Source: an uncultured delta proteobacterium
GTDB taxonomy: Bacteria; Desulfobacterota; BSN033; UBA1163
Assembly: GCA_963708295.1 (NCBI GenBank)
Contig: CAVPSJ010000004.1
Location: forward strand, 704,001-768,000
Length of the DNA stretch: 64,000 bases
Reading direction: 5' to 3'
Below the pieces are notes generated by a model. That model was given only the letters and a program-made list of their open reading frames with translations. It made no database searches and was not told the DNA's origin. A program made the position numbers and the translations under genes. Numbering within the stretch: the first letter of the stretch is position 1; each line of letters starts with the position of its first letter. Below are positions 5,817 through 10,243 of this stretch, piece by piece.

Positions 5817-6158
5817 TTAAGAAGGTAGAAACCTGGACAATATCCAGCTCACGACGCTGATCAGAATTGACCCCAGGACCGCACCCCAGAATCCACTGAC
5901 ATAAAATCCCTTGACCAGGGCTGACACCAGCCAGAGCATCAGTCCGTTGATGATCAGCAAGAAGAGTCCCAGAGTCAGCAGCGTGATGGGAAAGGTGAGG
6001 AAGACCAGGACGGGTCGGAGGATGGTATTCACGATCCCCAGGAGAAATGCAGCCACCAATGCCGCTAGGAAACCATCCACCCGGATCATCTTTGGAAAGA
6101 GATAAGAGACAATGAGAATAGCGACCATATTGATGATTAAGCGAACGACGAAGAACAT
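5817..6158 (-). CDS. YvlD-like four-TM membrane protein (phage holin 4_2 family)
   Basis: LGIVNTILRPVL...TFPITLLTLGLF.LIINGLML signature. Confidence 0.85.
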   Translation of the reverse strand: MFFVVRLIINMVAILIVSYLFPKMIRVDGFLAALVAAFLLGIVNTILRPVLVFLTFPITLLTLGLFLLIINGLMLWLVSALVKGFYVSGFWGAVLGSILISVVSWILSRFLPS

Positions 6159-6170
6159 GGTTTTCTCCTT

Positions 6171-7169
6171 TTAGTGATGATAATAACCCTCTTTCCCAAC
6201 CTTACCTCTAAAAACCATGTAGTTATAGACGGTATATCCCAGGACCAAAGGTAAAACGATGATCACTCCCCATAGGGTGAAGCGGAGGGTTTCTTGTTGT
6301 GCCGCCGCTTCCCGAAAAGTAATGCTGGGCGGAATGGCATAGGGGTAGATGGAAGCAATGAGACCCAGGTATCCTGCAAAGAAAAAGATCACACTGAAAA
6401 CAAAGGGCAGAATCTCCCGCCGGGCTCTTAGGCTCTTCATCAGTCCATAGAAGGCCAGCAGGCCCACCAGAGGAAAGGCCCAAATAAAATAGATTCGGGG
6501 TGGATGGATCCAGTTTGTCAGGGCCGAAGGGTAATGGAAAGGCGTCCAGAAGGTGACCAGGATTTGAAAGAGCAAAACCACCCATGCCGCCCAGAAGGCT
6601 TTGTGGTAAGCGCGTTCCTGTACCGCTCCTTCGGTCTTAATGAGAAGATAAGTGGATCCAAGAAGAATATAGCCTGCGATGAGTGCAAGGCCTACGGTCA
6701 CCGAAAAAGGGGTTAGCCAGTCGAAGGGGCCGCCCGCGAATTGACCTTCAGCCACCTTTGTTCCAGAAAGAATGCCACCCAGGGTCAACCCCTGAGCGAT
6801 CACAGCGACCAAACTCCCCAAAAAGAAAGTCGTGTTCCAAAATCCCTTTCGCGTCGCATTCGCCCGGAACTCGAACGTCACGCCACGGAAGATCAGACCG
6901 AAGATGAACGTGAGAAGAGGGATGTAGAGCCCGCTGAAGACCACGCCATAGATCATGGGAAAGGCAACAAAAAGGGCTCCTCCGCCAAATACCAACCACG
7001 TCTGATTCGCATCCCAAACCGGGGCGATACTGTTCATCATTGTATCTCGCTCTTCTTCGTTCCGGGTGGTGGGAAACATCAGGGCTATCCCCAGGCTGAA
7101 ACCATCGAGAACCACATAGAGGAGAATGGCAAGGGCCAATAAGCAAGCCCAGAGAGTGATGAGATCCAA
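6171..7169 (-). CDS. cydB: Cytochrome bd ubiquinol oxidase subunit II
   Basis: YVVLDGFSLG, PVWDANQTWLVFGGGALF, IFRGVTFEFR; TTG start after AAGGGGGG. Confidence 0.92.
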   Translation of the reverse strand: MDLITLWACLLALAILLYVVLDGFSLGIALMFPTTRNEEERDTMMNSIAPVWDANQTWLVFGGGALFVAFPMIYGVVFSGLYIPLLTFIFGLIFRGVTFEFRANATRKGFWNTTFFLGSLVAVIAQGLTLGGILSGTKVAEGQFAGGPFDWLTPFSVTVGLALIAGYILLGSTYLLIKTEGAVQERAYHKAFWAAWVVLLFQILVTFWTPFHYPSALTNWIHPPRIYFIWAFPLVGLLAFYGLMKSLRARREILPFVFSVIFFFAGYLGLIASIYPYAIPPSITFREAAAQQETLRFTLWGVIIVLPLVLGYTVYNYMVFRGKVGKEGYYHH

Positions 7170-7195
7170 TGGTTTACCCCCCTTAAAAACAATGT

Positions 7196-7345
7196 CGAAA
7201 CCCGAAGCACGAAATTCGAAACAAGCACGAATTCTCAAAATAAAAATGACCAAAACAAAAGCGGTTTCGAAATTTGGATTTTCGATTTGTTTCGAGTTGG
7301 TCCGTAACGGACGCTTCGCCCGATATCCGAATTTCGGATTTAGGA
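7196..7345. repeat. Imperfect palindrome built from ~7-nt units (CGAAGCA/CGAAATT), between cydA and cydB
   Basis: Shares CGAAGCACGAAATYCGAAACAA with the element at ~49643; arms are reverse complements. Confidence 0.75.
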
Positions 7346-7377
7346 AGAACTCGTCTACCGATCATCATGAGGATGCT

Positions 7378-8766
7378 TCATCCTGTCTGCGCTGTGCCCC
7401 TGCTTTCTTGAAGGGTCTGCATCCCGGCCAGCCGCTGAATCGGCGGGATAGGGCTCGCCATGTCCGGGCCGGTCTTTAATGTCTTCAGAATATAATAAAA
7501 GTAGCTCGTCCCGACCACGATGAAGATGACCAGAAAAAGGCTCAGAGACCAGATGACATTCCCGGCCGGGATGGGAGAAACACCTTCGCTCGTCCGCATC
7601 AGATTGTAGACGAGCCATGGTTGCCGGCCCACCTCATTGGTCACCCAGCCCAGTTCCGTTGCAAAAAAACCCAGGGGATGCAGAACCAGCAGGGTTCGCA
7701 AGAATGGACGGTGGCTAAAAAGGCGTCCCTGTCGCCAAAGAACTGCAGCCCACACCATGATCAATAGAAGAACAAACCCGATGGCAACCATCAGCCTGAA
7801 GCTCCAGAAGAGGATGAAAACATTGGGGCGATCTCTCTTCGGAAATTCCTTAAGCCCCCGGACTCGACCCTCAAAGGAATGGGTCACCAGCAGGCTGAGG
7901 CCATCGGGGACGTCGATTGAAAGAAGATTGTTTTCAGCCTCCATGTTCGGGAGAGCGATGACTGCAAAGGGAGCCCCTCCTTTGATGTTGGTTTCCCAAT
8001 GAGCCTCCATGGCGGCCAGTTTTGCCGGCTGGTGATGGAAGACCTGCCGACCGCTCACATCCCCTTGGTAGACTTGAAGGGGTGCGAAAAGGGCAGCCAT
8101 CACCAGGGCAATCCCCAAGGACCGTCGGAAAATATCCACGTACCTTCCTTTGAGAAGATAGTAAGCACTGATTCCGGCGACGACGAAAGCAGATGTCTCA
8201 AAAGAAGCCAACGTCATGTGACCCATTCGGGCGAACAGAGAGGAGTTGAAGATCGCTGCTGAGAAATCAGTGACCATGAACTTTCCGTTGACCAGTTTGT
8301 AGCCCGCCGGCGTTTGCATCCAGGAATTTGCGGCCAGAATCCAAAACGCCGAGAGGATGGCCCCGAAGGATACCAGGCAGGTAGCTAGAAAATGGATGCT
8401 TCGCCGGACTCTCTCCCAGCCGAAGAGCATGATGCCCAAAAACCCACCTTCCAAAAAGAAGGCCGTCAACACCTCGAAACCCAAAAGAGGGGAAAAGACG
8501 TTGCCCACTTTTTGGGAAAAGTGAGAAAAGTTTGTACCGAATTCAAACTCCAATACGACTCCTGAGACCACCCCTATTCCAAAATTGATGGCGAAGATCT
8601 TGACCCAGAAACGGTACAGGCGATAATAAATCTCCTGTTTCGTGATTAACCAGAGGGACTCCACGACCACCAGATAAAGGGCAAGACCGATCGTCAACAC
8701 TGGAAACAGAATGTGAAACATGGTGGTTACGGCAAACTGAATTCGAGAAAGAAAAACGGCGTCCAT
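7378..8766 (-). CDS. cydA: Cytochrome bd ubiquinol oxidase subunit I
   Basis: SRIQFA..MFHILFP, FEFGTN, ANSWMQTP, QPAKLAAME, EVGRQPW. Confidence 0.95.
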   Translation of the reverse strand: MDAVFLSRIQFAVTTMFHILFPVLTIGLALYLVVVESLWLITKQEIYYRLYRFWVKIFAINFGIGVVSGVVLEFEFGTNFSHFSQKVGNVFSPLLGFEVLTAFFLEGGFLGIMLFGWERVRRSIHFLATCLVSFGAILSAFWILAANSWMQTPAGYKLVNGKFMVTDFSAAIFNSSLFARMGHMTLASFETSAFVVAGISAYYLLKGRYVDIFRRSLGIALVMAALFAPLQVYQGDVSGRQVFHHQPAKLAAMEAHWETNIKGGAPFAVIALPNMEAENNLLSIDVPDGLSLLVTHSFEGRVRGLKEFPKRDRPNVFILFWSFRLMVAIGFVLLLIMVWAAVLWRQGRLFSHRPFLRTLLVLHPLGFFATELGWVTNEVGRQPWLVYNLMRTSEGVSPIPAGNVIWSLSLFLVIFIVVGTSYFYYILKTLKTGPDMASPIPPIQRLAGMQTLQESRGTAQTG

Positions 8767-9066
8767 CGCCCGCCCCTTCGAAATGACCCTTCTTTTACCT
8801 CATGCTTCTCTCAAGGATTGAGTAGTTTCCTCAGGAAAGGAAACATTGATATAGATGCCAGACCCCATTTCCAACCCTGCGGGTGGGGTCAGTCGCGGAA
8901 TAGTAGCTGGATCCCGTCTCAGTTGAGACATGGGAATCTCCGTTTCATGAGGAATGCGGATTGCAGAACGAAGTACCACGTAAGGTACCCTTTTTTGGTC
9001 TATCCGAAGTCGGCAATCCAAAATCGTCAATTATGTAAGAACCTGTTGAGAGACTCATTTTCTCGG

Positions 9067-9196
9067 GCTGATCAAAAATGCCCAAATGCAAGGCCCCCGA
9101 AATCCTGAGAGTGGCGTTGGGACGAATGAGGAGCGACTCATTGCCACGCCCCCGAAGGGGGCCGGATAACGCCGCAGATGGGTGTTTTTCAACAGC
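9067..9196. mobile_element. Short non-coding element with imperfect terminal inverted repeats (MITE-like)
   Basis: GCTGATCAAAAATGCCCAAATGC ... GCAGATGGGTGTTTTTCAACAGC inverted ends. Confidence 0.55.
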
Positions 9197-9199
9197 ATG

Positions 9200-9220
9200 A
9201 AAAGGCCTTAACCTAAGGCC
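9200..9220 (-). terminator. Probable intrinsic terminator overlapping the TAA of the small TGA-containing gene
   Basis: Minus strand GGCCTTA-GGT-TAAGGCC-TTTT. Confidence 0.55.
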
Positions 9221-9369
9221 ACGAGTAACCCCACAAAGGCCCCCAGAGGAGTGGAGATGTAAGGGTTACACGTGAAAGCTCAGGAACTTCCGATGCCTCG
9301 GGTAAGATAAGTCAGAGCAAAGCCAGCAGCCCCGCCCAAGAGCATACCGATGAGGATCTTTGGGATCAT
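9208..9369 (-). CDS. Small two-TM protein (DUF6132-like) with in-frame TGA; candidate selenoprotein
   Basis: AGGAGG RBS; MIPKILIGMLLGGAAGFALTYLTRGIGSS(TGA)AFTCNPYISTPLGAFVGLLVALG; hairpin directly 3' of the TGA. Confidence 0.72.
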
Positions 9370-9544
9370 ACCTTCCTCCTTTTTATAAAAATACCATTCC
9401 GTAATGGCTAAATCAATAACAAGATGAGTCGATCATTATTTTCGATGCTTCCTCGATGGATATTCACTTGACAGATTGACGTGCGACATCTAGACTAATT
9501 GTCATGAACTGAAATCGAGGGATTTATCAATTGGACTCGCGGAA

Positions 9545-10243
9545 ATGATCAAAGAATTTACCCAGGAAGAATTGTCGTCTTTTAACGGAAAAGAAGGGAG
9601 GCCCGTCTATATCGCCCTTCAAGAAAAAGTCTACGATGTCTCCAAGAGTCCCTTATGGTCGAAAGGCCTCCATATGAACAGACATGCCCCAGGCAGGGAT
9701 CTTGCCGGAGAGATCTCTGCGGCCCCCCACGGGACAGAAGTGCTTGAAAGATATCCCCAGGTAGGGGTTTTGAAGAAAGGGGGACCCGAGGAGTTGAAGC
9801 ATCTTCCTCCCGGTCTCCGGACCCTCCTCGAAAAATTCCCGATGGCAAGACGCCATCCTCACCCGATGATTGTTCATTTTCCTATTGCCCTTCTGATGGC
9901 TTCCTCTCTCTTCGTCCTTCTCTACCTCATCTTCAAAGATCCTTCCTTTGACCGTACCAGTTTCTACCTTTTCGTTTTGGGAGCAATCGCTTCTCCCTTT
10001 GCCATGGCCACGGGGCTCGTTACCTGGTGGGTAAATTATCGATTAAAGCTCTCTCTTTTTGTGAAGAGAAAAATGCAGTTTTCGATGCTCCTCCTTATCT
10101 TTGAGATCATCCTCATCCTTTGGCGCAGTTCTCCATCCCCAATATCCAGCCCCATTTATTTCATCATGGTGGTCATCCTCACCCCCATCGTCTCGATCCT
10201 GGGCTACTATGGGGGCCAGATGACTTTTCCGGCAGAACGATGA
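9545..10243 (+). CDS. Cytochrome b5-like heme/steroid-binding domain fused to a DUF2231-like membrane domain
   Basis: FTQEELSSFNGKEGRPVYIA..VYDVS..W..G.H...H..G.DL, then HPHPMIVHFPIAL and TM helices. Confidence 0.85.
   Translation: MIKEFTQEELSSFNGKEGRPVYIALQEKVYDVSKSPLWSKGLHMNRHAPGRDLAGEISAAPHGTEVLERYPQVGVLKKGGPEELKHLPPGLRTLLEKFPMARRHPHPMIVHFPIALLMASSLFVLLYLIFKDPSFDRTSFYLFVLGAIASPFAMATGLVTWWVNYRLKLSLFVKRKMQFSMLLLIFEIILILWRSSPSPISSPIYFIMVVILTPIVSILGYYGGQMTFPAER

Follow-up and report, generated by a model that had tools for sequence, protein, structure and literature searches.

A small gene with an in-frame UGA upstream of cydAB

We analysed a window of 64,000 nucleotides (nt) from an uncultured delta proteobacterium (contig CAVPSJ010000004.1 of assembly GCA_963708295.1, positions 704,001 to 768,000 of the forward strand), in which an earlier inspection of the letters alone, here called the sequence-only reading, had proposed an unannotated membrane selenoprotein with an in-frame UGA. 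All positions given below without a contig name are those of the window, meaning this whole stretch. The proposed gene lies on the minus strand at 9369..9208. It is very probably a functional gene for a selenoprotein of 53 residues, which is predicted to form a helical hairpin in the membrane with selenocysteine (Sec) 30 and Cys34 in the loop. The UGA, the frame beyond it and two RNA hairpins downstream are kept in six families of a single phylum; the incorporation of selenium, expression, membrane topology and function that we propose are suggested by this conservation and by gene context.

The coding sequence (9208..9369, minus strand) begins with an ATG at 9369-9367, 5 nt after an AGGAGG ribosome-binding site (9375..9380), and yields a product of 53 residues if the UGA at 9282-9280 is read through as far as the TAA at 9210-9208. 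Each of these features was found where it had been proposed, and orthologs have the same frame and the same TGA. In the read-through product the TGA codon, residue 30, is followed by AFTCNPY, in which the TGT codon at 9268..9270 encodes Cys34, the likely partner of Sec30 in a U-x3-C arrangement. Translated with table 11, the frame ends at the TGA after 29 codons. Gene callers give this 29-residue form (about 20 of the 96 proteins matched by our ortholog profile, described below, are truncations of 27-31 residues), and because they cut the gene at this point it is missing from protein databases. The aligned start is ATG in 29 of 30 ortholog loci, and purine-rich, GGAG-like strings precede it in most of them, as judged by eye and uncounted.

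Conservation of the UGA and of the frame beyond it

A six-frame search of 61 related genomes returned 34 strong matches (E <= 1.1e-12) that span residues 1-53 or begin at residue 2, 3 or 4; the remaining rows, at E >= 0.008, are noise. All 34 carry exactly one TGA. At the 30 loci that we read by eye, the U stands at the same position every time, within a conserved motif G-S-S-U-x-x-T-C-N-P-Y. A scan of the class found the gene in 45 of 68 genomes, with 45/55 in the family of the window (f1), 0/8 in f2 and 0/5 in f3, and the TGA was present in 46/46 full-length matches. In a sample of 401 genomes from the phylum, 33 have the gene and 33/33 have the TGA; these matches come from six families (f1 12, f39 12, f59 5, f14 2, f23 1 and f27 1). 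No Cys form was seen in the searched genomes of the phylum. Protein identity falls to about 40-55% in the far families, which shows a long divergence during which the TGA was retained.

We then take the 61 unique full-length orthologs together. The TGA is at codon 30 in 61/61, and the Cys codon four positions further on is equally constant. Over codons 31-53, the column entropies summed by codon position are 17.7/7.9/30.0 bits, the same coding periodicity as in codons 1-29 (30.1/19.7/44.9 bits). The sequence-only reading had staked its proposal on conservation past the UGA; this conservation proves to be strong and codon-periodic, and the stretch past the UGA appears to be translated. C34, P36, G43 and G47 are invariant, and a stop closes the frame at codon 54 in 60/61. 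These ortholog counts are not independent events and overstate independence, because the genomes are related.

A sequencing error in place of TGC or TGG had also been raised as a danger. Contigs from 4 runs of 4 studies keep the TGA: there is no other letter at 9280-9282, and the flanking sites 9283 and 9274 vary. The TGA is not an assembly error.

One candidate Cys form was considered and set aside. It was a second copy in genome G074, which matched residues 30-53 without a stop; it is a 3' gene fragment lacking the N-terminal half. At this locus (L194, G074:C52:1-420) the broken copy keeps the part from NPY to the stop, together with the hairpin at the stop codon, joined to unrelated sequence.

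Selenocysteine machinery and genetic code

The sequence-only reading presupposed that the host genome can make and insert selenocysteine, and this was borne out. The genome has selA (532 bits), selB (353 bits), the tRNA-Sec encoded by selC (81 bits) and two selD genes, each with an in-frame TGA, and all four components score above curated cut-offs. Further TGA-containing genes in the genome encode FdhA, FlpD and AhpC-TSA proteins. TGA also closes 918 of the 2110 open frames of at least 300 codons, and it is therefore an ordinary stop in a standard code here.

Both selD genes are themselves selenoprotein genes, with the TGA near the N-terminus (L010, G000:C17:66608-67531; L011, G000:C4:371872-372792). 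An FdhA match outside the window (G000:C4:537394-538890) was reported with two TGA codons. One is the Sec codon, in the context C-A-R-L-U-H-S-S and with a selenocysteine insertion sequence (SECIS) whose loop is GGUCU; the other opens the matched stretch and is probably the end of the preceding frame. The C-terminal part of this FdhA matches separately, and the gene may be split or frameshifted.

The protein as a divergent member of DUF6132

Searched singly against Pfam, the window protein matches only DUF6132 (PF19628), at 13.9 bits (E 0.043) where the gathering cut-off is 23.2 bits, and NCBIfam gives no match at E <= 10. PF19628 is matched by 26 of the 30 orthologs, all below threshold (best E 8.3e-5), and none of the 30 matches an NCBIfam model, selenoprotein models included, at E <= 1. 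Comparison of profiles gives a far stronger signal. An hhalign alignment of the ortholog profile with ten canonical DUF6132 members scores 99.4% (E 2.6e-21), covers 53/53 columns with 47% consensus identity, and pairs U30 with the invariant Cys of DUF6132.

When the profile of 30 orthologs was searched against 1.84 billion representatives, 96 proteins were found at E <= 1e-3; most matches of the first protein search cover just the first 29 residues. Full-length profile matches carry Cys in the U column, in the form G-G-x-C-P-L-T-C-N-P-Y or, in canonical DUF6132, C-x4-C-P-[LI]-T-S-N-P. Homologs have either TGA or Cys at residue 30, and the link to DUF6132 with the UGA aligned to a Cys, which the sequence-only reading had offered, holds for the profile even with the single protein below the cut-off. 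Because the full-length relatives carry Cys at this position and the profiles match at 99.4%, we take the gene to be the Sec form of a divergent DUF6132 branch. By these alignments the protein evidently belongs, as a divergent member, to the DUF6132 superfamily, and its Sec stands where the family has an invariant Cys. Among the profile matches, a protein of 48 residues (P0006) carries W where Sec would stand; some pipeline apparently read the TGA as Trp, and the record is therefore probably a mistranslation.

The product of the small gene shares with DUF6132 its length, a helix-loop-helix plan with glycine-rich helices, and the loop motif T-x-N-P-Y/W, and a bona fide member of the family (P0009, 49.8 bits) is among the profile matches. 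The differences are concentrated in the loop. Of the motif C-P-[LI]-T-x-N-P, T33, N35 and P36 are kept, the Cys has become Sec, the Pro that follows it is lost to Ala, Gly or Thr, and an additional Cys occupies x. The second Cys thus sits four residues after the Cys or Sec in this branch, whereas in canonical DUF6132 it sits five residues before the invariant Cys. A full-text literature search on the family name returned nothing on the function of DUF6132, only unrelated work. AlphaFold2, run on the ortholog alignment, predicts a helix at 2-25, a loop at 26-35 that includes U30 and C34, and a helix at 36-52 (mean predicted local distance difference test score, pLDDT, 86). In this model, the protein would be a membrane helical hairpin with Sec30 and Cys34 in the connecting loop.

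Two RNA hairpins specific to the Sec forms

The 91 nt after the UGA fold at -33.7 kcal/mol (z = -2.83), a value matched by 1 of 200 shuffles. Two conserved elements lie in this stretch, both on the minus strand. Helix 1 (9226..9268), drawn by RNAalifold, starts 11 nt after the UGA and consists of arms 9268-9259 and 9234-9226 around a variable interior of 24 nt. Hairpin 2 (9204..9220), GGCCUUA-GGU-UAAGGCC, has 7 base pairs (bp), holds the UAA stop in its 3' arm and places its loop 66 nt after the UGA. The sequence-only reading had drawn a long stem-loop from 9274 to 9220. A stem-loop after the UGA is indeed real and covaries, but its outer CACG/CGTG pairs (ACG/CGU in the window) fall outside the conserved consensus; the conserved helix is 9268-9226.

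We assessed covariation in 62 unique Sec-form sequences, in which helix 1 pairs columns 15-24 with 49-57 and hairpin 2 pairs columns 63-69 with 73-79. For both together, 90% of the 992 cells are standard pairs, and 10 of the 16 pairs change on both sides, in 71 cells. None of 500 shuffles reached the pairing score, a count that is no probability because the sequences are related, and no version slid by 1-3 columns pairs above 52%. Taken separately, helix 1 pairs in 89% of cells, with 6/9 pairs changing on both sides, and hairpin 2 pairs in 91%, with compensatory change in 4/7.

The Cys forms were compared for the same structures. Of the nine pairs of helix 1, a mean of 8.03 form in Sec forms (n=62) and 4.93 in Cys forms (n=71), and the mean minimum free energy of columns 12-60 is -19.5 kcal/mol in Sec forms versus -11.5 kcal/mol in Cys forms. 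A GG-loop hairpin of 5 bp or more whose start lies at columns 56-72 is present in 60/62 Sec forms versus 4/71 Cys forms, and any hairpin of at least 6 bp over the stop codon in 58/62 versus 6/64. Both hairpins are specific to Sec forms.

Hairpin 2 also appears to be under selection at the level of the RNA, to judge from its synonymous sites: among the 61 orthologs the codons of Ala51 (GCC, 55/61) and Leu52 (TTA, 55/61) are nearly fixed, and a GGC beyond the stop is conserved in 49/61. In the same orthologs, the interior of helix 1 varies freely at third codon positions. The far families keep the layout of two hairpins, with shifts of register and other stop codons, and with the stop outside the hairpin in one case.

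A consensus scan flagged hairpin 2 as terminator-like, and TTTTC follows its stem in the window. The sequence-only reading had likewise placed the TAA inside a terminator-like hairpin. The hairpin is present as described, with 7 bp at 9220-9204; as a general intrinsic terminator it was rejected, since at least 5 T in the next 8 nt occur in only 6/62 orthologs.

A possible two-part SECIS

According to section 5 of PMC13188914, a bacterial SECIS has a loop of 3-9 nt with a G in its initial two positions, typically N1-G-[G/U]-N-N2 with N1/N2 pairing, on a stem of at least 4 bp, with 16-37 nt between the UGA and the loop. The SECIS hairpins of FdhA and SelD in the same genome have stems of 7-8 bp that start 10-13 nt after the UGA, and their loops are GGUCU (two FdhA genes) and GGA and GGAUCU (two SelD genes). 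Hairpin 2 agrees with the published loop and stem rules in 55/62 sequences. Like the canonical elements (PMC13188914, section 5, and the genome's own FdhA and SelD), it has a stem of 6-8 bp and a small N1-G-G-N-N2 loop whose N1 and N2 can pair. It differs from them in the distance of its loop from the UGA, 64-66 nt rather than 16-37 nt, in holding the stop codon and 3-4 untranslated bases, and in the second covarying helix, of 43 nt, that stands between it and the UGA. In none of the 62 sequences does a GG-loop hairpin of 5 bp or more begin 10-30 nt past the UGA.

The stem-loop at 9274-9220 had been put forward as the SECIS. A covarying helix does lie there, but the textbook-like hairpin is the one that had been called terminator-like. 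The caution attached to that proposal, that its apical loop is not a textbook one, was well placed: the apex agrees with the published bacterial rule in only 19/62 orthologs.

From these structures, hairpin 2 is a candidate for the SECIS hairpin bound by SelB. SelB would bind this short hairpin, with its GGN loop and the stop codon inside it, and the covarying helix 1 would act as a folded spacer that brings hairpin 2 to an effective distance of 11 plus 5-6 unpaired nt from the UGA. If the gene is a selenoprotein gene, as we think, we would give this division of labour roughly an even chance.

We also tried a genome-wide scan for a stop followed, 6-25 nt on and in an open frame, by a GG-loop hairpin. 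It returned 106 such sites for TGA, 60 for TAA and 40 for TAG and was too noisy to use; its filter of 60 codons upstream also missed selD. Family searches of known selenoproteins were used instead.

Gene neighbourhood and proposed function

In the window, the small gene lies between cydAB and a divergent cytochrome b5 gene, a placement that a Pfam scan of the neighbours bears out. The divergent gene (9545..10243, plus strand) encodes a membrane protein with Cyt-b5 and DUF2231 domains and has BioY/ECF transporter genes after it. The cytochrome bd oxidase genes (6171..8766, minus strand), cydA at 8766-7378 and cydB at 7253-6171, lie downstream of the small gene and on its strand. Their association with the small gene, which the sequence-only reading had pointed to, is real in the window but loose elsewhere: in f1, cydA is within the 1.5-kb flank in 8/30 loci. 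The divergent Cyt-b5/DUF2231 gene is adjacent in 15/30 f1 loci, a GalT-like open reading frame stands directly after the small gene in 20 of the 29 other loci (334 residues in L023), and rubrerythrin follows the gene in three loci.

The other families have other neighbours. In f39, the small gene is preceded at 15-20 nt by the end of a thioredoxin gene (PF00085, 117 bits) in 11/11 loci with upstream sequence; in f59 the context is a methyltransferase; and in the f27 locus L108 the divergent neighbour is a CopD + Cyt-b5 protein. At the f14 locus L113 (G333:C3, ~568-2650), the small gene lies between an ECF sigma factor and zf-HC2 anti-sigma pair and a TrxB-like reductase. The layout recalls thiol-stress regulons, and the protein there continues past the conserved hairpin instead of ending in it. 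Among the profile matches, seven are longer proteins (97-190 residues) with the domain at the N-terminus, and the two of them that were scanned, P0022 and P0054, have a C-terminal thioredoxin domain. Neighbours of Cys forms were counted in 80 metagenome loci, which are not de-replicated; they include an ArsR-family regulator fused to rhodanese (10/80), rubrerythrin (8/80), ferritin (7/80), a CoA-disulfide-reductase-like enzyme (6/80) and a Thioredoxin_3 protein (5/80).

The sequence-only reading had suggested a redox-active membrane peptide, and the thioredoxin fusions and the thioredoxin or TrxB-like neighbours lend support to that suggestion. At the membrane surface, Sec30 and Cys34 could work together as a selenylsulfide/selenol-thiol redox pair. 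The thioredoxin system would reduce this pair, and reducing power would pass on to an acceptor in the membrane or envelope. The neighbouring cytochrome-b5/DUF2231 protein, a candidate partner by its context, may be this acceptor in the present lineage, and the role may be defence of strict anaerobes against oxygen or thiol stress. Conservation and context are what suggest this picture of a thioredoxin-linked selenol/thiol redox element at the membrane, serving in oxygen or thiol stress defence. Taken as one package, a bridged two-part SECIS (the hairpin over the stop, at 64-66 nt, with a spacer helix) together with a 53-residue selenol/thiol relay fed by thioredoxin is a tentative proposal, to which we assign somewhat less than an even chance.

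Several further features surround the gene. The conserved upstream motif TGGTATTTT (9388..9396, minus strand) recurs in most f1 loci, judged by eye and at an unchanged offset, as ATGGTAT or GATGATA strings; it is a possible extended -10 element, and a consensus promoter scan did not flag the region. Between the small gene and cydA, 9040-9205 is an interspersed repeat with 66 blastn-short matches in its own genome, itself included. Contigs from other runs reach depths in the thousands there, with many loose ends at 9155-9202, and the repeat looks like a small mobile element or one resembling repetitive extragenic palindromes (REP-like). Beside it, a 76-residue open reading frame at 8800-9030 (minus strand) keeps only the first ~ten codons of the GalT-like gene (PF01087/PF02744), which seems to have been deleted in the window and in genome G034. 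Directly downstream of cydB, at 5817-6158 (minus strand), lies a gene for a membrane protein of the Phage_holin_4_2 family (PF04020, 119 bits).

Weighing the alternatives

It could be argued that the UGA is a true stop, that the gene encodes a single-helix peptide of 29 residues, and that the sequence downstream is a structured 3' RNA or a leader for the genes that follow. Gene callers do predict the 29-residue form, to which about 20 of 96 profile matches (27-31 residues) correspond, and the downstream RNA is highly structured. However, variation after the UGA is codon-periodic (17.7/7.9/30.0 bits), the 23 downstream residues align with the second half of DUF6132 with a Cys at the UGA position, an invariant Cys codon and an invariant NP motif stand four to six codons past the UGA, the frame closes at codon 54 in 60/61 orthologs, and the genome has the Sec machinery. 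We consider a true stop extremely improbable. Nor do we give much credence to read-through without selenium, in which a near-cognate tRNA, a Cys-tRNA(Sec) or an altered code would place Cys or Trp at residue 30. The W in database protein P0006 and the ancestral status of Cys at this site would suit such a scheme, yet the code is standard, with TGA ending 918/2110 long open frames, and two RNA hairpins specific to TGA forms would be purposeless. The strict use of TGA over TGC/TGT, in 61/61 orthologs from six families, argues for a distinct residue, and overall we regard selenium-free read-through as very unlikely.

Within the selenoprotein interpretation, the roles of the two RNA elements and of the U-x3-C loop can each be read differently. 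Helix 1 (9268-9226), in the canonical position, might be the whole SECIS, with SelB on an atypical apex, and hairpin 2 might serve the stability of the mRNA 3' end, a termination pause or transcription termination. Helix 1 begins 11 nt past the UGA, close to the 10-13 nt of the genome's own FdhA and SelD stems; it covaries (6/9 pairs change on both sides) and is specific to Sec forms; its apex, 28-34 nt from the UGA, is within the 16-37 nt range, has the invariant U38, G40 and G41 inside it and agrees with the full rule in 19/62 sequences. According to reviews, moreover, the model does not cover every bacterial SECIS element (PMC13188914, section 5; PMC13326102, section 11). On the other hand, the apex lacks a G in the two opening loop positions in 43/62 and its loops are inconsistent, its third codon positions vary freely (entropies 1.1-1.85 bits), and its invariant bases are explained by the Pro-Leu-Gly-Ala codons. 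Hairpin 2 would be left unexplained despite its specificity to Sec forms (60/62 vs 4/71; 58/62 vs 6/64), its fixed synonymous sites and its conserved non-coding GGC, and with a T run in just 6/62 it is no general intrinsic terminator. A SECIS formed by helix 1 alone therefore seems to us unlikely, though it is a rival that we take seriously. As to function, the main rival is metal or metalloid handling, in which the U-x3-C loop would bind or pass on a soft metal or metalloid (Hg, Cu, As, Se/S species) and no thioredoxin-linked relay would exist. The ArsR-family regulator fused to rhodanese beside Cys forms (10/80 metagenome loci) and the CopD + Cyt-b5 neighbour in f27 fit such a role, and the 2026 review already lists membrane selenoproteins that handle metals, namely a MerT-like protein and a Cu/Zn efflux transporter (PMC13188914, Table 1). 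Yet the second Cys has no fixed place (5 before vs 4 after), as would be expected more of a resolving Cys than of a fixed metal site, the thioredoxin fusions and the thioredoxin or TrxB-like neighbours point to thiol redox, and the neighbour counts rest on loci that were not de-replicated. We judge metal handling to be quite improbable.

The selenoprotein interpretation, and the two-part SECIS and thioredoxin-linked relay that we attach to it, has to be set against several observations that weigh on the other side. The kinship of the genomes inflates independence in the shuffle controls as well as in the ortholog counts. No RNA run is among the 23 runs listed as containing the locus. Formal membership of PF19628 fails for the window protein (13.9 vs 23.2 bits). 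No single RNA element agrees with the full published SECIS rule: the loop of hairpin 2, at 64-66 nt, is outside the allowed 16-37 nt, and the apex of helix 1 satisfies all the rules in 19/62 sequences, with inconsistent loops. The GG of hairpin 2 is partly explained by the invariant Gly53 codon. For a bridged SECIS we found no precedent in the titles and abstract openings of the papers listed on SECIS spacing, and the case for SelB on hairpin 2 is purely structural. No single partner is conserved, because the context differs between families (b5/DUF2231 in f1, thioredoxin in f39, methyltransferase in f59). A two-helix hairpin puts its loop and its C-terminus on opposite sides of the membrane, so a thioredoxin fused at the C-terminus would be away from the Cys loop unless the hairpin is re-entrant. 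Against this stand the retention of the TGA, the coding periodicity beyond it and the covarying hairpins, and a 53-residue selenoprotein remains by far our preferred explanation.

Significance and comparison with known systems

The tables of prokaryotic selenoproteins listed 87 families in 2022 (PMC9312934, section 13) and 119 families or subfamilies in 2026 (PMC13188914, Table 1). DUF6132, PF19628 and any two-helix membrane family bearing this motif are absent from both tables. The small gene would thus add a selenoprotein family that is missing from the 2022 and 2026 lists and has no NCBIfam match; it was found in none of the lists and models checked, and the supplementary BSepDB and deep-Sep family lists could name it. 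Annotation misses the gene even though 45/55 genomes of its family have it. For DUF6132, a redox-active Cys/Sec linked to thioredoxin would be a first functional handle.

If hairpin 2 is the SelB site, the distance rule in bacterial SECIS predictors is too narrow, and searches limited to 16-37 nt would systematically miss small selenoproteins. The locus would then show a SECIS acting at a distance in a natural bacterial gene, and its short mRNA would be a compact system, provided by nature, for work on how SelB gets to the ribosome. The protein, as a membrane hairpin of 53 residues, would be among the smallest selenoproteins. It is tempting to speculate that a membrane selenol encoded near genes for cytochrome bd, rubrerythrin and thioredoxin points to an unstudied defence against oxygen or thiol stress in syntrophic anaerobes.

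The nearest motif among the listed selenoproteins is that of TsoA (LULAxC, NF045695; an entry in Table 1 of PMC13188914), in which U and C are likewise three residues apart. The NF045695 model, however, matches neither the window protein at E <= 10 nor any of the 30 orthologs at E <= 1.

Cytochrome bd oxidase has small accessory subunits of the CydX-like kind, and the small gene resembles theirs in encoding a very small hydrophobic protein beside cydAB in the window. It differs in that its product has two helices and a Sec/Cys loop and that it lies upstream of cydA. A CydX-like subunit was considered and rejected: cydA is within 1.5 kb in 8/30 loci and is absent from the examined f39, f59, f14, f23 and f27 contexts, and there is no Pfam match.

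The closest analogy in working principle may be with the transmembrane thiol-disulfide relays of the DsbD/CcdA type, in which a membrane-embedded Cys pair next to Pro is fed by cytoplasmic thioredoxin. As proposed here, a Sec/Cys pair would take the place of the Cys pair, in a protein with no sequence relation to those relays (no Pfam match). DsbD/CcdA proteins have six or more helices and the small protein has two, so any relay by it would need oligomers.

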